Assembly: GCA_963844035.1 (NCBI GenBank)
Contig: CAWJMT010000037.1
Span: forward strand, 64,001-128,000
DNA: 64,000 nucleotides
Direction of reading: 5' to 3'
DNA from: an uncultured Gemmatimonadales bacterium
GTDB lineage: Bacteria; Gemmatimonadota; Gemmatimonadetes; Gemmatimonadales; GWC2-71-9
Shown: one piece after another, positions 50,413 through 61,137 of the stretch
How the letters are laid out: every line of letters begins with the position of its first letter
How positions within the stretch are numbered: position 1 is the stretch's first letter
Translations under genes and position numbers: made by a program
Notes under the pieces: generated by a model
The model's database searches: none
What the model saw: only the letters and a program-made list of their open reading frames with translations
Told to the model about the DNA's origin: nothing

Positions 50413-51377
50413 AAGCGATCCGCGTTCACTCGCACGGTGCCCCCGAAGTCCTCACGTACGAAGATGTCCCACAGCCGGTGCCGGGTCCGCTCGAGGCCCT
50501 CGTGAAGCTCGAGGCGGCCGGCGTGAACTTCATCGACGTGTATCACCGCACCGGGCGCTATCCCACGTCGCTCCCGTACACGATCGGCCAGGAGGGTGCC
50601 GGGACGGTGGTCGCGGTGGGCGCCGAGGCGCGCGGCGTGCGCACCGGTGACCGGGTCGCCTATACGGGCGTGCAGGGCGCCTACGCAGAGTATGCGGCCG
50701 TTCCCGCCGAACGGCTGATCGCGATCCCCGACGGGGTGAGCACGCGGCAGGGAGCGGCCGCAATGCTGCAAGGGATGACCGCTCACTACCTCGCCTGCAC
50801 GACCTATCCCCTCAAAGCGGGCGACACCTGCCTGGTGCATGCCGCGGCGGGGGGCGTCGGCTTGTTGCTGTGCCAGGTTGCCAAGCTGCGGGGCGCGCGG
50901 GTGCTCGGTACGGTCTCGACCGAGGCCAAGGCGCGCCTCGCGCGTGAGGCCGGTGCCGACGAAGTGATTTTCTATACCACGAGCGACTTCGAGGAAGCCG
51001 TGAAACGCCTCACCGGAGGCGCGGGGGTTCAGGTGGTTTACGATGCGGTGGGGAAGACCACGTTCACGAAGGGACTGAACTGTCTGGCGCGCCGTGGCAT
51101 GATGGTGCTATACGGTCAGTCGAGCGGGGCCGTCGATCCGGTCGATCCTCAGGTGTTGAACCAGAAGGGTTCGCTCTTCCTCACGCGGCCCAACATCGCG
51201 CACTACGTGGCGACGCGCGAGGAGCTCGAGTTGCGGGCGGGCGAGGTGTTCGCCTGGATCCGCGGGGGGCGGCTCAGGGTGCGCATCGGCCGGGAGTTTC
51301 CCCTTGCCGACGCCGCCGAGGCGCACCGGGAGCTCGAAGGGCGACAGACGACGGGCAAAGTTCTGCTCATTCCGTAG
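50409..51377 (+). CDS. qor: NADPH:quinone oxidoreductase
   Basis: GVNFIDVYHRTG, MLQGMTAHYL, VHAAAGGVG, KGSLFLTRP, TTGKVLL. Confidence 0.9.
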   Translation: MKAIRVHSHGAPEVLTYEDVPQPVPGPLEALVKLEAAGVNFIDVYHRTGRYPTSLPYTIGQEGAGTVVAVGAEARGVRTGDRVAYTGVQGAYAEYAAVPAERLIAIPDGVSTRQGAAAMLQGMTAHYLACTTYPLKAGDTCLVHAAAGGVGLLLCQVAKLRGARVLGTVSTEAKARLAREAGADEVIFYTTSDFEEAVKRLTGGAGVQVVYDAVGKTTFTKGLNCLARRGMMVLYGQSSGAVDPVDPQVLNQKGSLFLTRPNIAHYVATREELELRAGEVFAWIRGGRLRVRIGREFPLADAAEAHRELEGRQTTGKVLLIP

Positions 51378-52441
51378 CGGCCTCCCGCGCGAGCAGCGCC
51401 TGCTTGCGCTTCAACCCCCAACGGTACCCGCCCAGTCCTCCGTCCTCGCGCACCACGCGGTGACAGGGGACGACAATCGCGACGGGATTGGTCGCGCAGG
51501 CGCGGGCGACGGCACGCGCGGCCGTGGGCTTCCCGATGGCGCGCGCGATCGCGGAATACGAGCGCGTCGCTGCCGTACGGGATCCGCTGCAACGCCTCCC
51601 AGACGCGTCGCTGAAACGCGGTGGCGCGAACGTCGATGGGGAGATCGAGTGGCGCCGTGCCCCCATCCACGTGGGCCGTGAGGCTGGAGACCCAGGCCTT
51701 CAACCGCCCGTCGTCCCGCGCGACCGTCGCCGCGGGGAATTCCGACCGGAGCGCCCGCTCGAGCGGTGCGGCGCTGTCGCCGAGACTGATCCGGCAGAGG
51801 CCGCGCTCGGTGGCGGCGACCAACAGCCAACCGAGCGAGCAGGGCACGGTGGCGAAGCGAACCGCGACGCCCGGTCCGCCGCGGCTGTAGGTCGCGGGCG
51901 TCATACCGAGGTGGGCGTGCGTGCGCTCGTACACGCGGCTGGTCGAGCCGTATCCGGCCTCGTAGAGAGCTGGACTCACTTTTTTCCCTCCTTTCAGCTG
52001 GGTCTTGAACCGGGCGAGGCGTCGCTCGTCGGCGTATTGGCGCGGGCTGATGCCCAGCACGTGTTGAAATGCGCGCAGCAGCCGATGCGGCGTGGTGCCG
52101 CCACGCGCGGCCAGCGTCGCCAGGGGCGTGGGTGCATCGGGGTGTGCGTCGATGAGCCGGCACGTGTCCCGCACCAGGGCCACGCGCGGATCGGCGACGC
52201 TGGCTTGTCCCGGGCGGCAGCGCCGGCACGCGCGGAATCCGGCACGCTCGGCGGCGTCTGTCCGGGCGAAGAACTCGACTTGACCGCGGCGCGGTTTCCG
52301 GCTCGGGCAGGAGGGAAGGCAGTAGATCCCGGTCGAGCGCACGCCGTACACGAATGCGCTGTCGTAGCGGCGATCGCGCGCCAGCACGATCCGCCAGCGG
52401 CGTGCGGCACTCAGGGTCGAAACGGCAGCGGCACGGCTCAC
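51367..52441 (-). CDS. ada: Bifunctional transcriptional activator / O6-methylguanine-DNA methyltransferase (frameshift ~51570)
   Basis: TGIYCLPSCPSR, GFRACRRC, AraC HTH, ARACATNPVAIVVPCHRVV. Confidence 0.95.
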
Positions 52442-53943: not shown

Positions 53944-54339
53944 ATGCCGAGCGACCGGCGGACCTATTCCAGCGGCACGACCTGGGAGCCCCTCGTGGGT
54001 TATTCCCGCGCGGTGCGGGTCGGCAACGCGATCTACGTCGCGGGGACGACGGCCACCGGGCAGGACGGGCGCATTGTGGGGCCGGATGACGCCTATGCGC
54101 AGACGGTGCAGACGATCCGCAACATCGAGCGCGCGCTGCGGGCGTTGGGCGGGGGCCTCGAGTCGGTCGTCCGCACGCGGCTGTTCGTGCGCGACATCGC
54201 GGACTGGGAGCTGGTCGGCCGCGCCCACGGCGAGTTCTTTCGCGACATTCGTCCCGCCTGCACGCTGGTCGAGGTCTCGGGTCTGGTCGACCCCGCCATG
54301 CTGGTCGAAATCGAAGCGGACGCGGTCGTCGCCGGGTGA
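53944..54339 (+). CDS. RidA/YjgF family protein
   Basis: [36 protein letters not shown]. Confidence 0.93.
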
Positions 54340-56093
54340 CCCTCCCGGGTGACACTCTCGAGCCGCGCCCGCGGGGCGAGCAGCCGCCGCTCCCCGGGTG
54401 GGCCAAGACACTCCAGCGCCGCATCCGGCAGCGGGGGATCGACTTTTTCATCCTCCACGGACCCGGTGTGCGCGACCTCCACCCGCTCGGCGCGCGACGC
54501 TTCGGCGCCATGGGCGAATTTCTCACACAGGTACTGCTCAGCGACCGGTCGGCGATCATCAGCTACGATCGCGGTGCCGGGATCGGGTTCAGCGATCGCG
54601 ACGTCGAAAACGATTTCAAGACCGTCCTCAAAGCCTACGACAAGATCGGCGGGACGAACCTCGCGCAGCTGCAGCCGCGCGAGCCGGAGCGAGCGCTCCA
54701 GCTGATCGAAACGTATCTGCGCTACCAGCTCGCCGAGAACCGCCGTTTTTCGGCGGCGGTCGTCGTCGACTTCGGGGAGACGGTAGCACCCGCCGGCGAG
54801 CCCGGTCAGCTCCCGGCCGAAGATCGCAACGCGATCGTCACGCTGCGCCGTTGGGCCAGTGAACCGCTGTTTCTGCAGCGCTACGTGACCTTCTGCCTGC
54901 TCGCCGAGACGGCGGCGGCACTGTCTGCTGCCCTCGTGGGCGATGCCCGGACATTTGAGATCACCGTGCCGGTGCCCGACGAGCAGGAGCGCCACGCCTA
55001 CCTGGCGGGCCGCGGCAGCCGGCCCGAGACCTTCGCGAGCCTGGACTCGCGCCGCGCGGCGATCCTCACCGCGGGACTCACGCGGCTGCACCTCGAGAGC
55101 CTGCTCGCCGAGGCCGAAGCCAACGGCGCGGGGCTCGATCAAGACGCCCTCACGCGTGAGAAGAAACGGCTCATCGAAGAGGCCAGCGGTGGCCTCCTGA
55201 CGTTTATGACCAGCAGCCTCGGGTTGGACGCGGTCGCCGGCCACACGGGTGCCAAGGCACTGCTGCGGGAGACGGCGGGGGCACTGGCGCAGGGCCGCCT
55301 CGACGTGGTGCCGATGGGCTACCTGATCTGCGGTCCGGTCGGGACCGGCAAGAGCTTCATCGTGCGCTGCTTTGCGCGCGACATCGGGATCCCGGTCGTG
55401 GAGCTCCTCAACTTTCGCTCCAAGTGGCAGGGCCAGACCGAGGCCAATCTGGAGCGCGTCCTCGGGCTGCTCGATGCGATCGGTCCCGTCGCCGTGGTGG
55501 TGGACGAAGCTGACGCGGCCCTCGGCACGCGCGAGCGGGGGGGCGGGGACTCGGGCGTGTCCGAGCGAGTGTTCGCGTCGCTCGCGGCATTCATGGGCGA
55601 CACGAGGCGCCGGGGCAAGGTCGTCTGGTTCCTGATGACGAGTCGGCCCGACCTGGTTCCGGTGGACTTGAAGCGTCAGGGTCGCGCCGAGGAGCACATC
55701 GCGTTGTTTCCGCCCGCGACGATCGAGGAGCGCGCCCAGGTGTTCGAGAGTCTGCGCCGGCGGCTCGGCATCGCGCTCGAACCCGGGGTCGAGCCCGGCT
55801 CGCTCCTGGCGGAGAGTCCCGACGCGGTGTCAGCGGCGGACCTGGAGGCGATTCTGGTGCGGGCGGGGCGCCGGATGGCGGCGGGTGGCAGTACGGCGCT
55901 GAGCGCGTCTCTGCTGCGGGAGTTGATCCGCGATTTCCAGCCGCCGTCCTACCCGCTGGAGCTCGAGTATCAGCGCCTCATCGCCGCGTTCGAATGCACC
56001 AGCCGGCAGCTGCTCCCGCCCGATTTGGCGGCGCTTTCGCCGCAGGATATCGGCGCCCGGCTCGCCGAGCTGCGAACCGCGTTGGGTCGATGA
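54336..56093 (+). CDS. AAA family ATPase with degenerate N-terminal domain
   Basis: [21 protein letters not shown]...KRQGR. Confidence 0.9.
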
Positions 56094-56196
56094 GCCGCGG
56101 GTCGCCCGGCCCGGAGTGCCTGTCCACCCGCGCCGGGGGTTGTTACGTTCTCGCACTCACCGACGCGGTACGTATCACCAGCCCTTGGGGGAGTCG

Positions 56197-57303
56197 ATGA
56201 AGATTGGGGTCCCGAAAGAGACCGCGGTCAACGAGCGCCGGGTGGCGGTGACCCCGGACGTGAGCCAGCGGCTCGTCAAAGCCGGTCTGACGGTGCTGGT
56301 CGAACGGGGCGCCGGCGAGGCGGCGTCGTTCACCGACGAGGCCTACCGCACAGCCGGCGCCGAGCTTGCCGGAACCGCGGCGGATATCGTCGGGCAGAGC
56401 GACGTCCTGCTCAAGGTGCAGCCCCCAACCACCGCGGAGGCAGGGCTGTGCCGCGAAGGGTCCGCGTTGGTGGCCCTGTTCCAACCCTCCGCCGCCCGGG
56501 AGGCCGTGGCGCGGCTCGCCAGCCGCAAAGTCACGGCCTTCAGCCTGGCGCTCCTCCCCCGGATCACGCGGGCGCAGCCGATGGACGTGCTGTCGTCCCA
56601 GGCCACCGTCGCGGGGTACCGGGCGGTGCTGATGGCCGCGATGCAGACCGGCCGGTTCTTCCCGATGCTGGTCACGGCCGCCGGCACGCTCACTCCGGCG
56701 CGCGTGCTGGTGTTGGGCGCCGGTGTTGCGGGCCTGCAGGCGATCGCCACGGCGCGGCGCCTCGGCGCCGTCGTGTCGGCGTTCGACGTGCGCCCCGCGG
56801 TCAAGGAGCAGGTCGAGAGTCTCGGGGCCAAGTTCGTCGCGATGGAGATCACCGAACAGGCGGAAACCGCCGGCGGGTACGCCACCCAGCTGTCCGACGA
56901 GACGCATCGGCGCGAGCTCGAGTTCATCGCGCAGCAAGTAAGAGACATCGACATCGTGATCACCACGGCGGCCATCCCCGGCAAGAAGGCGCCGACGCTG
57001 ATCAGCGCGGCGGCGGTCGAGGGGATGAAACCGGGCTCGGTGATCGTGGACCTGGCGGTCGAGACGGGCGGCAATTGCGAGCTGTCGCAGCCGGGGAAGG
57101 ACGTGGTGCGCAAGGGTGTCACGATCCTCGGGCCGCTGAACGTGGCGAGCACGTTGCCGTATCACGCCAGTCAGATGTACGCGCGCAACATCTCGAGCTT
57201 CCTGCTGCACCTGGTCAAGGACGGTGCGCTGGCCCTCGATTTCAATGACGAGATCATTCGCGACACGTGTGTGACTCACGCCGGGGAGGTACGGAAAACA
57301 TGA
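56197..57303 (+). CDS. pntAA: NAD(P) transhydrogenase alpha-1 subunit
   Basis: MKIGVPKE..ERRVA, PRITRAQ.MDVLSSQ, GAGVAGLQAIATA. Confidence 0.95.
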   Translation: MKIGVPKETAVNERRVAVTPDVSQRLVKAGLTVLVERGAGEAASFTDEAYRTAGAELAGTAADIVGQSDVLLKVQPPTTAEAGLCREGSALVALFQPSAAREAVARLASRKVTAFSLALLPRITRAQPMDVLSSQATVAGYRAVLMAAMQTGRFFPMLVTAAGTLTPARVLVLGAGVAGLQAIATARRLGAVVSAFDVRPAVKEQVESLGAKFVAMEITEQAETAGGYATQLSDETHRRELEFIAQQVRDIDIVITTAAIPGKKAPTLISAAAVEGMKPGSVIVDLAVETGGNCELSQPGKDVVRKGVTILGPLNVASTLPYHASQMYARNISSFLLHLVKDGALALDFNDEIIRDTCVTHAGEVRKT

Positions 57304-57626
57304 CCGAAGGATTGCTGGCGGCCCAGGCTGCCACGGGCGATCACGGGACGGTCGACTACTGGTCGATGCTGTTCGTGTTCGTGCTCTCGACCTTCATCGG
57401 GTTGGGCGTGATTCGGCGCGTGTCCCGGCTGCTGTACACGCCGCTCATGTCGCTCACCAACGCGATCTCGGCCATTGCGGTCGTCGGCTCGATCGTCGTC
57501 GCCGGGGCCGAGTACCCGGTCGTCATCCGAGTCATGGGAGCGGTCGCGTTGTTCGCGTCGATGACGAACATCGTGAGCGGGTTCATGATCACGGACCGCA
57601 TGCTGAAGATGTTCAAGAAGCAATGA
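57300..57626 (+). CDS. pntAB: NAD(P) transhydrogenase alpha-2 subunit
   Basis: TPLMSLTNAIS, GFMITDRMLKMF. Confidence 0.93.
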   Translation: MTEGLLAAQAATGDHGTVDYWSMLFVFVLSTFIGLGVIRRVSRLLYTPLMSLTNAISAIAVVGSIVVAGAEYPVVIRVMGAVALFASMTNIVSGFMITDRMLKMFKKQ

Positions 57627-59029
57627 CGCACGCCGTCGCCGAGTTCGCCGCCGTTCTTGCCACGGCGCTGTTCATTTTCGCGTTGTACTGGATGGGCGAC
57701 CCGAAGACCGCGCGCCGCGGTGTGATGGCGGGGATCGGGGGAATGGTCGTGGCCGTCCTGGCGACCTGGATCCAGCCGGAGATCGTGCACCACGCGTGGA
57801 TCGTCGTGGCGATTATCGCGGGCTTCGCCGTTGGCATTCCCCTGTCGCGCGTGCCGCTCACCGCCGTCCCGCAGCGGACCGCCCTCTCGCACGCGTTCGG
57901 CGGACTCGCGGCCGGCCTCGTGGGTACCGCAGAGTACTTCCTCGGCGCGGGGCACAACCCGGAGCAGCTCACGGCGTTCCGGATGAGTGCCATCGTCGTC
58001 GAGGTGATTCTGGGATTCCTCACGTTTACGGGGAGTCTCATGGCGGCCGGGAAGCTGCAGGAGGTGAAGTGGATCCCGCAGCGTCCGGTCACCTACCCGG
58101 GGCAAAACGTCGTGAACGTCGGCGTGCTGGTGCTCGCCGCGATCCTGGGTGTCCTCGTCGTGCTGCATCCGACGGCGGCCTGGTCGGGACAGGCATTCTA
58201 CGGCATCGTCGCTCTGGCGATCCTGTTCGGGGTGCTGCTTATCATCCCGATCGGGGGCGCGGACATGCCCACGGTCATCTCGATCCTGAACGCCTACGCC
58301 GGCCTCTCGGCGGTGGCGATGGGCTTCGTGCTCAACAACAAGCTGCTCGTCACGGCAGGCGCGCTGGACGGCTCGAGCGGCCTGATTCTGTCGATCATCA
58401 TGTGCCGCGCGATGAATCGCTCGTTCACGAACGTGCTGTTCGGGGCGTTCGGCACGGTGCAGAAGGCCGTGGCGGTCGGGGAGCAGAAGACCTGGAAGCA
58501 GGAGACCCCGGAGGGCGCCGCGCAGATGCTGGAGCAGGCCCGACTCGTGGTGATCGTCCCGGGATACGGGATGGCGGTGGCGCAGGCGCAGCACAAGGTG
58601 CGCGAGCTGTACGATCACCTCACCAAGCGGGGGATCACGGTCAAGTTCGCGATCCACCCGGTCGCAGGGCGAATGCCCGGCCACATGAACGTGCTGCTCG
58701 CCGAGGCCGACATTCCCTATACGGCGCTGGTCGAAATGGACGAGGTCAATCCGGAAATGCCGCAGTGCGACGTCGCACTCGTGATCGGTGCCAACGACGT
58801 TGTGAACCCGGCCGCCCGCTACGCCAAGGGGAGTCCCATCTACGGCATGCCGATCATTGCGGCGGACAAAGCCAAGACCGTCCTGGCTATCAAACGCAGC
58901 AAGAATCCCGGGTTCGCCGGGATCGACAACGAGCTGTACGTGCTCGACAATACCTGGATGTTGTTCGGCGACGCCAAGGCGGTGCTGGGCGACCTCGTGA
59001 AGCAGTTCAGCGGGGGCGGCTTACACTAG
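57623..59029 (+). CDS. pntB: NAD(P) transhydrogenase beta subunit
   Basis: IGGADMP, CRAMNRS, VPGYGMAVAQAQH, HPVAGRMPGHMNVLLAEA, IGANDVVNP. Confidence 0.97.
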   Translation: MTHAVAEFAAVLATALFIFALYWMGDPKTARRGVMAGIGGMVVAVLATWIQPEIVHHAWIVVAIIAGFAVGIPLSRVPLTAVPQRTALSHAFGGLAAGLVGTAEYFLGAGHNPEQLTAFRMSAIVVEVILGFLTFTGSLMAAGKLQEVKWIPQRPVTYPGQNVVNVGVLVLAAILGVLVVLHPTAAWSGQAFYGIVALAILFGVLLIIPIGGADMPTVISILNAYAGLSAVAMGFVLNNKLLVTAGALDGSSGLILSIIMCRAMNRSFTNVLFGAFGTVQKAVAVGEQKTWKQETPEGAAQMLEQARLVVIVPGYGMAVAQAQHKVRELYDHLTKRGITVKFAIHPVAGRMPGHMNVLLAEADIPYTALVEMDEVNPEMPQCDVALVIGANDVVNPAARYAKGSPIYGMPIIAADKAKTVLAIKRSKNPGFAGIDNELYVLDNTWMLFGDAKAVLGDLVKQFSGGGLH

Positions 59030-59045
59030 CCGTCCTACCAGACCC

Positions 59046-60668
59046 GTGCCCCCGCTTTCCGCCACGACGTTCACGACCACCCTCGCCCTCGTGGGCGTGG
59101 TCGTGATGGTGGCGGCGCTGTTGTCGGGCGTAGTGGATCGGTGGCGCCTCCCGCAGGTCGCGGTCTTTCTGCTGCTCGGCCTCGTGCTCGGCTCGAACGG
59201 GCTCGGGCTCGTCGTCTTCGACCTCACCTCTCCCATCCTGCAGACGATCGCCACGATCGCACTCGTCCTGGTGCTGTTCACGGACGCCGTGTCGGTGGAC
59301 GTGGCCAAGGTCAGCCGGCACCGGCGCCTCGCATTCCTGGTGCTGGGCCCCGGCACGATGCTGACCGCGGGCCTCATCGCCCTCGCGGGGTGGGCGCTGC
59401 TGGGGCTGCGACCTGCGCCCGCCGTCATCCTCGGCGCGGCGCTCGCCTCCACCGACCCCGTGATGATGCGTGGCCTGCTGCGCGGGACCGACGTGCCGGG
59501 CGCCGCGCGACAGGCGCTGGGGCTCGAAAGCGGTCTCAACGACATCGTCTTGCTCCCGGTCGTGCTTGTCGCGATGGCGTTCCTCGGCGGGAGCGGCGGC
59601 GAGGCGCACTTCGGCCGCATGGCGCTGGATCTGTTCGTGCTGGGCCCAGGGGCGGGCGTCGTGCTCGGGTTCCTGGGCGTTGCCGCGCTCGACCAGGTGC
59701 GCCGCAAGCTCACCGTACGCCGCGACTACGAATCGCTGTACGCCCTCGGCGTCGCGTTCACGGCGTACGCGGCGGCGGAGGCCGTGCACGGCAGCGGGTT
59801 CCTGGCCGCGTTCACCGCCGGCCTGACGATTGCCGTGGTCGATGCCGAGCTGTGCGATTGCTTTCTCGATTTCGGCCAGGCGGCCGCCGAGATGTTTCTC
59901 TTGCTGACGTTTGTGGCGCTTGGCAGCTCGCTCATCTGGACCGGGCTCTCCGGCGTCACCTGGGCCGCGCTCGCGTTCGCAGGGATAGCCCTGTTTGCCC
60001 GCTCAGCGGTGCTGCTCGTGGCGCTGCGCGGCCAGCCGCTCGACCCCCGCAGTCGTCGCCTGATCGTCTGGTTCGGGCCGCGCGGCCTGAGCTCGCTGCT
60101 GCTGGTGCTGCTCCCGGTATTCGCGGGCCTCCCGGGCGCGGAGGGGTTGTTTGCCCCAGCCGCACTGGTCGTGCTGTTATCGGTCGTGATTCACGGCGGA
60201 GCGCAGATGATCCTGGGGAAGGGGGACGGGGGAAGAGGGAAGGGCGCTCCCTTGCCGATCGCCGACGCGGCTCCCGCTTCCGACCCGGTGCCCAGGAACG
60301 ATCTTGTTGCGAACACTGAGACGATCACGCTGGATGAGCTGCGACGGGTGCAGGCCGCCGGTGAACGCGTCTGGCTGCTCGACGTGCGGAAGGAGGGGGC
60401 CTACAGCGAGGCGGACACCCAGGCGCGCGGTGCACTTCGCGTGTCACCCGATGGCAACGTTGCGGTACGCGCCGCGGAGCTCGCGCTGCCGCGCCACGAC
60501 TGGCTCGTCGCATACTGCGCCTGACACAGCGAAGCCACAAGCGCCCGGGTGGCGCTAAGCTTGAGAAAAGCCGGCTGGTCCAGGGCGCGGGCCCTGGTGG
60601 GTGGGTGGACGGTGTGGCAGGCGGCGGAGATGCCGGTGGAGCCGAAGCCCGCTACTCCTCCTGGATGA
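59046..60668 (+). CDS. CPA1 (NhaP-like) cation:proton antiporter fused to a rhodanese domain with predicted selenocysteine at UGA 60522-60524 (540 aa if read through)
   Basis: ASTDPV, ESGLND, WFGPRG (CPA1); LLDVR...GALR...LVAYCA-UGA-HSEATSARVALSLRKAGWSRARALVGGWTVWQAAEMPVEPK; next stop 60666-60668. Confidence 0.8.
60532..60562 (+). promoter_or_regulatory. Candidate bacterial SECIS element
   Basis: Upper stem AGCGCC (60540-45)/GGCGCT (60551-56), loop CGGGT starting 21 nt after the UGA; lower stem AAGC (60532-35)/GCTT (60559-62). Confidence 0.6.
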
Positions 60669-61137
60669 CGGTGATCTTGTACCCGTCGGGGTCGGTGATC
60701 GCGAACGCGTAGTCGCCCCACGGGGTTTCCCGGGGCTCGTAGTCCAACCGGACGCCGCTCGCCTTGATGCGGGCGGCGATCGCCGCGATGTCCTGCGCCG
60801 TCGCGAGCCACAGCCGCACCCCGTCACCTTTCGCGCGATCGCGGCCCTTCGTGAAATCGTCCTGCGACAGCATCAGGTCGCACACGCCCGCTTTCATCTG
60901 TATGCCCAGCAGTTTCCCGTTGTCTTCCCATCGCTCCCCCGGCCAGAAGCGCAGCACATCGCGGTACCAGGCGATGCTGCGCGTCAGGTCGTTCACCGTG
61001 AGCGAGGCGGCCAGGGAACGCAGCCGCAGCGACTCGGGCTGCTGGCGTTGAGCGAGCGCGGGGGACTTCGGGGCACGCTTCGGGGTGGACTTCTTCGGTG
61101 CGGGTTTGCGGGCGGGCTTCTTTTTCTTGGGCGCCAT
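60652..61137 (-). CDS. VOC/glyoxalase family protein with Lys/Pro/Ala-rich N-terminal tail
   Basis: LTVNDLTRSIAWYRDVL; PWG...F...DPDGYKIT. Confidence 0.9.
   Translation of the reverse strand: MAPKKKKPARKPAPKKSTPKRAPKSPALAQRQQPESLRLRSLAASLTVNDLTRSIAWYRDVLRFWPGERWEDNGKLLGIQMKAGVCDLMLSQDDFTKGRDRAKGDGVRLWLATAQDIAAIAARIKASGVRLDYEPRETPWGDYAFAITDPDGYKITVIQEE

Follow-up and report, generated by a model that had tools for sequence, protein, structure and literature searches.

A candidate selenocysteine-containing CPA1 antiporter with a C-terminal CxU rhodanese domain behind an in-frame UGA codon in Gemmatimonadota

The locus and its in-frame UGA codon

In an uncultured Gemmatimonadales bacterium, the open frame of a cation/proton antiporter ends at a UGA codon in the middle of a rhodanese-like domain. 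The question raised by this locus is whether the codon is a stop or is read as selenocysteine (Sec), and what a Sec-containing domain would do on an antiporter. The window (the whole stretch of DNA that was analyzed, 64,000 nucleotides) has a GTG codon at 59046 that starts a frame of 492 codons, ending in YCA followed by TGA (60522-60524), and 47 more codons follow in the same frame to a second TGA (60666-60668). Frame translation confirmed this reading of the initial annotation and gave a product of 540 aa. Relatives L062 and L064 have ATG at the equivalent N-terminus, which supports the GTG start. The features are listed below in window coordinates.

59046..60668, + strand, full gene; 540 aa with Sec493, final stop TGA 60666-60668
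59046..60221, + strand, CPA1/NhaP membrane domain, aa 1-392; 13 predicted membrane helices (Pfam PF00999, E 7.8e-36; AF2 model; Foldseek to PaNhaP/MjNhaP1)
59283..59543, + strand, ion-binding residues D80, T136/D137, E161/S162, and N165-D166 (profile alignment to 4cz8)
59853..59861, + strand, C270-x-C272 in motif ELCDCF, at the cytoplasmic start of helix 10, aligned beside PaNhaP E290/H292; in 45 of 45 sequences
60000, + strand, R319, equivalent to PaNhaP R337 (profile alignment to 4cz8)
60081, + strand, R346, equivalent to PaNhaP R362 (profile alignment to 4cz8)
60225..60311, + strand, variable, low-confidence linker, aa 394-422 (pLDDT <50, column conservation 0.51)
60309..60647, + strand, CxU (NF041203-like) rhodanese-fold domain, aa 422-534 (NF041203, 81.6 bits; PF00581)
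60516..60524, + strand, C491-A-U493, with TGA 60522-60524 as the inferred Sec codon (sequence and homolog alignment)
60532..60562, + strand, bacterial SECIS-type hairpin; upper stem 60541-60545 with 60551-60555, weaker lower stem 60532-60535 with 60559-60562
56116..59029, + strand, context outside the gene: three NAD(P) transhydrogenase genes, with 16 nt between the last of them and the GTG start
60652..61137, - strand, context: convergent VOC/glyoxalase gene, overlapping the read-through 3' end by 17 nt

Some of the first arguments for read-through did not carry weight. Open-frame length was rejected as evidence, since at least 47 open codons follow the TGA in 154 of the 332 long, gene-like ORFs of this GC-rich genome that end in TGA (46%), and the 47 codons of the window are no support by themselves. 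The gap of 127 nt that would be left before the convergent VOC gene is real, but it has no weight alone, and read-through gives the 17-nt overlap instead.

Selenocysteine as the probable reading of the UGA codon

The initial annotation had suggested tabulating the codon across homologs. The aligned codon is TGA in all 50 loci that span the site, among 54 loci examined (8 and 46 from two separate searches). L089, L098, L103, and L104 do not span the site. Without the duplicates L065 and L082, 48 of the spanning loci are distinct including the window's own, which leaves 47 others; L068, which has a frameshift after the TGA, was left out of alignment A1. Carriers in the 46-locus search were Gemmatimonadota MAGs, apart from "bacterium HR33" and a single Actinomycetes MAG. 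An even sample of 401 genomes of the order gave 51 domain matches at E 1e-12 or better, and one TGA was present in 50 of them, the weakest match being the one without. Among 100 relatives of the actinobacterial carrier MAG there were nine further matches, with TGA in every stretch spanning the site (unpublished genome G474, locus L144, was left out of this evidence). The gene is patchy in its distribution and was found in none of six same-genus genomes. In some loci (L037/L134 of G033, L116, L125, L068, L087, and L099) the frame is short or broken around the site by a frameshift or split; the TGA and hairpin are retained in them.

Read-through completes the rhodanese domain, as had been proposed. 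PF00999 is matched on both the 492-aa and the 540-aa products, and Pfam Rhodanese (PF00581) is matched on the read-through product only (aa 429-527, E 8.9e-7). Mean column conservation is 0.70 before the UGA, 0.69 after it, and 0.71 in the membrane domain; the downstream stretch is conserved.

Protein records bear out the expectation that standard pipelines cut the gene short. Among 106 protein matches to aa 380-540, the residue before the TGA is the last one in 102; the other four comprise three full-length Cys fusions and one DedA-rhodanese with Cys. A set of 384 proteins covering the helix-10 loop (415 fetched, less 31 that do not cover the CxC loop) has 34 full-length Cys forms and 247 that end at the Sec site, a label taken from the shortened product in protein records alone. 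Natural homologs thus have Cys where the UGA stands, which agrees with the proposed Sec/Cys pairing at the second Cys position: homolog P0003 is 81% identical, and the DNA of four Cys-form loci has TGC at the Sec position. The Cys forms are scattered on the tree, with 9 Fitch changes among 76 labelled tips (FastTree only, with an arbitrary stand-alone sequence as root, and not usable for the order of events). By NCBI/JGI names, relatives come from Thermomicrobiales, Ktedonobacterales, Rubrobacter, Nitriliruptor, and Thermoanaerobaculia, and one protein match (P0413) is named from Ktedonospora formicarum.

For the family as a whole, base-call error is excluded as the source of the TGA. A search for raw reads of the source sample found no run with half of the words (best 0.21). 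Four read runs at 85% likeness had contigs of relatives only, two of which bridge the site with 60522-60524 identical among the rows listed (310 more stand beside these); they were not counted as evidence on the codon.

Insertion of Sec in bacteria is directed by a hairpin (bSECIS) behind the UGA. The bSECIS model is described in a figure legend of a review (PMC13188914, Figure 2) as a loop of 3-9 nt on a stem of 4-16 bp, with G in the first two loop places, spacing of 16-37 nt, and MFE of -7.5 or lower. The window hairpin is within all of these ranges: a 5-nt loop with G second on an upper stem of 5 bp (5-6 bp), the stem starting 16 nt and the loop 21 nt after the UGA, and a 45-nt region that folds at -12.9 kcal/mol. 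Hairpin energy alone is unremarkable (z -0.22 against shuffles). Across 45 distinct sequences, all 225 stem cells are paired, compared to 18-79% in slid controls, although kinship among the sequences inflates these counts. Two-sided changes occur in 10 cells at 2 pairs; this cell count was reached in 0 of 500 shuffles, and the number of covarying pairs was no better than shuffles (86 of 500). The 10 cells may represent only two events. On both sides, these substitutions are nonsynonymous, and the majority-codon share is 0.96 over the seven hairpin codons versus 0.58 over 35 flanking positions. The stem is kept in 28 of 28 further loci (from genomes partly overlapping the earlier set) and likewise in all 12 loci of the actinobacterial relatives, the DedA type, and the stand-alone type. 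In the four Cys-form loci (two distinct sequences, probably of one lineage), two to three of the five stem pairs are broken.

Decoding of UGA as Sec depends on tRNA-Sec (selC), selA, selB, and selD. The source genome (G000) is 83.7% complete. Its tRNA-Sec (75.9 bits) and selD are whole, and selA and selB are present, each split by a frameshift as assembled (C35:264063-265149; C3:152940-154801). The search for the selABCD set proposed at the outset was thus answered cleanly for selC and selD only. A further gene, which we take to be EF-Tu-like by its motif and tRNA neighbours, is split likewise (C31:10095-10977). Altogether, 4 of 21 matched gene keys, representing three distinct genes, are split across frames, which makes assembly indels the likely cause; the selA and selB frameshifts are probably assembly errors. 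Same-genus genomes have selA whole in six of six and selB over the cut-off in four of four. selA is present in 35 of 40 carrier genomes, and it is over the cut-off in 53 of 60 sampled relatives (G001-G060) regardless of the antiporter gene, so co-occurrence of selA and the antiporter does not discriminate. No formate dehydrogenase alpha gene was found in G000 (84% complete). Scans of the whole genome for further Sec genes, scored by hairpin or by codon, were overwhelmed by chance matches and overlapping stop/start pairs. The selenoproteome of the order looks little studied. Elsewhere in the window, a gene at 51203-52441 (- strand), presumably an Ada-like regulator/methyltransferase by its sequence, departs from frame near its C-terminal third, probably through another assembly indel.

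The TGA could be a true stop here, or a sequencing error, leaving a 492-aa antiporter with half of a rhodanese domain. The broken selA and selB and the failure to find raw reads of the source sample would fit this reading, but the breaks belong to an indel-rich assembly in which the EF-Tu-like gene is split too, the same-genus genes and the tRNA-Sec and selD of G000 are sound, and the TGA, hairpin, and downstream sequence are conserved in the 47 other distinct loci. We consider a true stop or error highly improbable. Sec/Cys pairing, downstream conservation, the conserved bSECIS, and the Sec trait in the lineage all support the 540-aa selenoprotein proposed originally, and the TGA is very likely decoded as Sec by way of SelB reading the hairpin.

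The antiporter domain, the rhodanese tail, and the CxC pair

CPA1 antiporters of the NhaP type are represented by PaNhaP and MjNhaP1, and these (PDB 4cz8 and 4czb) are the best structural matches of the AF2 model of the window protein (Foldseek E 1e-10). In the model (pLDDT 86.6, pTM 0.76), 13 membrane helices are followed by a disordered linker (394-422) and then by a rhodanese domain. Cys homolog P0003 aligns with NhaP structures at VIA Z 38-39 and rmsd 3.3-4.0 over about 380 residues, and the NhaP fold of 13 helices with two unwound helices is present. In the profile alignment to 4cz8, D80, T136/D137, E161/S162, and N165-D166 correspond to PaNhaP E73, T129/D130, E154/S155, and N158/D159; the roles of these residues and of R337 and R362 in PaNhaP are described in the sections of PMC4381880 that deal with them. 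Across 44 sequences, the ion ligands, ND motif, R319, and R346 are each either invariant or conserved to 90% or more. The CPA1/NhaP hallmarks were all found, namely the ND motif, T-D in helix 5, the E-R pair, and the GPR arginine. The ND motif points to exchange that is likely electroneutral, as in CPA1. The top NCBIfam antiporter models are potassium/proton antiporters (PRK05326), all under cut-off. By its likeness to PaNhaP, the membrane domain is probably a dimeric exchanger of Na+ or K+ for H+. G000 also encodes a second, distant CPA-type antiporter (C22:27871-28992), with 28% identity and a match in the membrane domain only.

In the neighbourhoods of 45 loci, no shared operon and no redox context were found: transhydrogenase genes are directly upstream in only 12, and a gcvT-like gene is nearby in 15. 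In the window, a 585-aa gene with a Walker motif (54336-56093, + strand), whose product we take to be an AAA-type ATPase, immediately precedes the transhydrogenase genes and shares their strand.

Rhodanese-like selenoproteins with a CxU motif are listed as "form 3" (COG0607 form 2), with function given as predicted only in the relevant entries of PMC13188914 and PMC9312934. Among NCBIfam models, NF041203 (rhodanese_LYCAU), titled "rhodanese-related (seleno)protein," matches the tail best (E 3.6e-23, profile positions 18-126 of 126). Its 81.6 bits fall short of the curated cut-off of 115 bits, and the Cys fusions score 58.8-92.1; by profile score, the antiporter tail is a domain related to NF041203 and not a member. 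The tail also has a weak match to the ChrE rhodanese model (E 3.9e-4). C491 aligns with the Cys of YCG-type rhodaneses, which is the classical catalytic position, and Sec493 does not stand there. The active-site loop has a two-residue insertion relative to L051, L052, and YnjE. Since C491 and not U493 is at the catalytic place and the loop is longer, plain sulfurtransferase activity should not be assumed.

The same domain occurs on other partners, and the comparison with DedA-rhodanese proteins made in the initial annotation is sound. P0104 is a DedA-rhodanese with Cys (motif YCTCPSE), and in L047 (1501-1812, G015) a 287-codon frame precedes a rhodanese domain that has YCS-TGA and the same hairpin, the size and motif being those of a DedA-rhodanese fusion. 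DedA-rhodanese fusions are mentioned in PMC10127716, where the link is called unclear and Sec is absent from the text on them. Separately, L057 (1501-1839, G009) encodes the rhodanese on its own, with YCA-TGA followed by the same hairpin.

In the family, Cys/Sec is conserved at just four columns, positions 270, 272, 491, and 493 (45 of 45 sequences). By alignment, C270 and C272 are on the cytoplasmic face near the dimer axis, next to the PaNhaP allosteric residues His292 and Glu290. The near-invariant RRDYES motif (aa 225-230, window 59718-59735) at the start of helix 8 aligns with the region of PaNhaP Glu233, the partner of His292, and may be a docking surface for the rhodanese tail. C270-x-C272 is present in 282 of 285 rhodanese-tailed proteins and in 8 of 42 stand-alone relatives; a query without the motif still gave matches with CxC in 104 of 105. 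In a reduced tree (132 of 298 near-whole sequences), CxC is in 77 of 79 tail-bearing and 8 of 42 stand-alone sequences. A single clade (FastTree support 0.96) unites the tail-bearing proteins; the 77 sequences are hence not 77 independent events, and co-occurrence of CxC and tail may be a single inherited event. With a deeper alignment, AF2 gave pTM 0.86 for the whole Cys homolog P0003, above what we would expect with an unplaced 115-aa domain, which suggests that the rhodanese domain may dock on the transporter. ESM Atlas gave only clusters of the same architecture, at 0.86-0.90.

Two cluster representatives (P0164 and P0165) have the same CxC motif with an AhpC/TSA tail in place of rhodanese (E 2.4e-4 and 6.2e-6). 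Their tails end in RGHW, and the S/T-P-x-C motif of the peroxiredoxin-like proteins encoded in G000 begins at the very next aligned column. PMC9312934 lists a UxxC family of Prx-like selenoproteins, and from their protein sequences these antiporters are a probable second, independent Sec (UxxC) fusion. CxC antiporters with a shortened AhpC/TSA tail comprise P0164, P0293, and P0165, and the cluster includes MFB0545922.1 (Anaerolineae).

Proposed mechanism, alternatives, and known systems

In the mechanism that we propose, SelB would read the hairpin and Sec would be inserted at the UGA, giving the 540-aa protein. The dimeric NhaP-type domain would swap Na+ or K+ for H+, likely in an electroneutral manner. 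The reactive selenol of the tethered C491-x-U493 would sense an oxidant or reactive sulfur/selenium species, and the CxU domain would exchange with C270/C272, which lie close to the dimer axis in the region through which pH signals reach the ion site in PaNhaP. A change in the state of the C270-C272 disulfide, formed or broken, would raise or lower transport. Such a redox relay of the Sec domain on C270/C272, switching transport, stands at about an even chance in our judgment. More tentatively, the cysteine pair at the CPA1 allosteric site might have recruited a Sec oxidoreductase domain twice (rhodanese CxU and peroxiredoxin-like UxxC), so that in Gemmatimonadota, Chloroflexota, and Actinomycetota a selenol would directly gate exchange and link redox state with pH and ion balance.

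Other functions can be proposed for a genuine selenoprotein of this architecture. The rhodanese may be a mobile module that acts on outside substrates, by sulfur/selenium transfer or protein reduction, and is only anchored by the antiporter, the CxC being structural (for example, an inter-subunit bond). The domain and hairpin alone in L057 and on DedA in L047 and P0104 are consistent with this, as are C491 at the classical catalytic position and the CxC of the eight tail-less relatives, and inter-domain covariation was noise, with nothing clear in 243 rows (effective 92). On the other hand, CxC is fixed in the tail-bearing clade only, the loop is longer by two residues than a sulfurtransferase loop, and the pTM of whole P0003 is high; we consider an independent module unlikely. 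The CxC and CxU might instead form together a soft-metal or metalloid site (e.g., Zn, Cu, Hg, or As) that senses an ion or hands it to the transporter. There are four invariant thiol/selenol ligands per protomer, the two CxC pairs lie near the dimer axis by alignment, the tail resembles ChrE rhodanese weakly, and most known transporter selenoproteins are implicated in metal/metalloid resistance in the relevant part of PMC13188914. However, the monovalent-ion site is fully retained, no recurring metal-resistance genes are nearby, and a peroxiredoxin-like tail, which has a thiol oxidoreductase fold, replaces rhodanese in two relatives. A metal site seems rather improbable, and the redox relay on C270/C272 is the reading that we carry forward.

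The initial annotation knew of no described selenoprotein antiporter, and this agrees with the published literature covered, in which no selenoprotein antiporter or Sec antiporter-rhodanese fusion was found (one could stand elsewhere under the rhodanese family). The word "antiporter" has no occurrence in the available main text of a 2026 review (PMC13188914), the available text of PMC9312934, the main text and one supplement of PMC13326102 (BSepDB) as available, the main text and four supplements of PMC12013277 (deep-Sep), or PMC13745706. The CxU rhodanese is already on record as a predicted selenoprotein type, and Cys forms are annotated as antiporter/rhodanese; new here are the Sec reading of the antiporter fusion and the link to CxC. 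On the Sec reading, a cation/proton antiporter would be added to the selenoproteome from a family that databases have cut short, with 247 of 285 rhodanese-tailed proteins stopping at the Sec codon. The CxU rhodanese domain would gain a candidate substrate on its own polypeptide, and for CPA1 antiporters covalent redox control becomes open to test at a position with an allosteric role in PaNhaP. Natural Cys forms such as P0003 open the way to expression without Sec machinery, and Ktedonospora formicarum (P0413) is a named species for selenium labelling.

Known transporter selenoproteins include the mercuric transport protein, an E1-E2 ATPase, YeeE/YedE, SaoP/SaoB/SaoX, and SO_0444, as named in the section of PMC13188914 on them. 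They share with the window protein a Sec in or on a membrane transport protein; none of those named there is a cation/proton antiporter. NF041203 and form 3 share the rhodanese fold and Y-C-A-U motif with the tail, but NF041203 is a model of 126 positions, and in the window protein the domain forms the end of an antiporter with 13 helices. The DedA-rhodanese fusions (P0104 and L047) carry the same CxC/CxU domain on a membrane protein, and the membrane partner differs. The active-site loop of a classical rhodanese has six residues. The active-site Cys of classical rhodanese sulfurtransferases is shared (C491), but the loop length is not. PaNhaP and MjNhaP1 have the fold, ion ligands, ND motif, and E-R pair in common with the membrane domain, at about 20% identity; a cytoplasmic Sec-rhodanese tail and a CxC beside the His292/Glu290 site distinguish the protein described here. 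KefB and KefC are CPA2 K+/H+ exchangers gated by glutathione. They work in a like manner, in that thiol status would be tied to cation/proton exchange through a C-terminal cytoplasmic domain in both. In contrast, the window protein is CPA1, with Pfam matches to PF00999 and PF00581 only and no KTN/TrkA-N domain, and the rhodanese CxU domain takes the place of KTN. Covalent thiol/selenol chemistry is proposed for it, compared to binding of a glutathione adduct in KefB and KefC.
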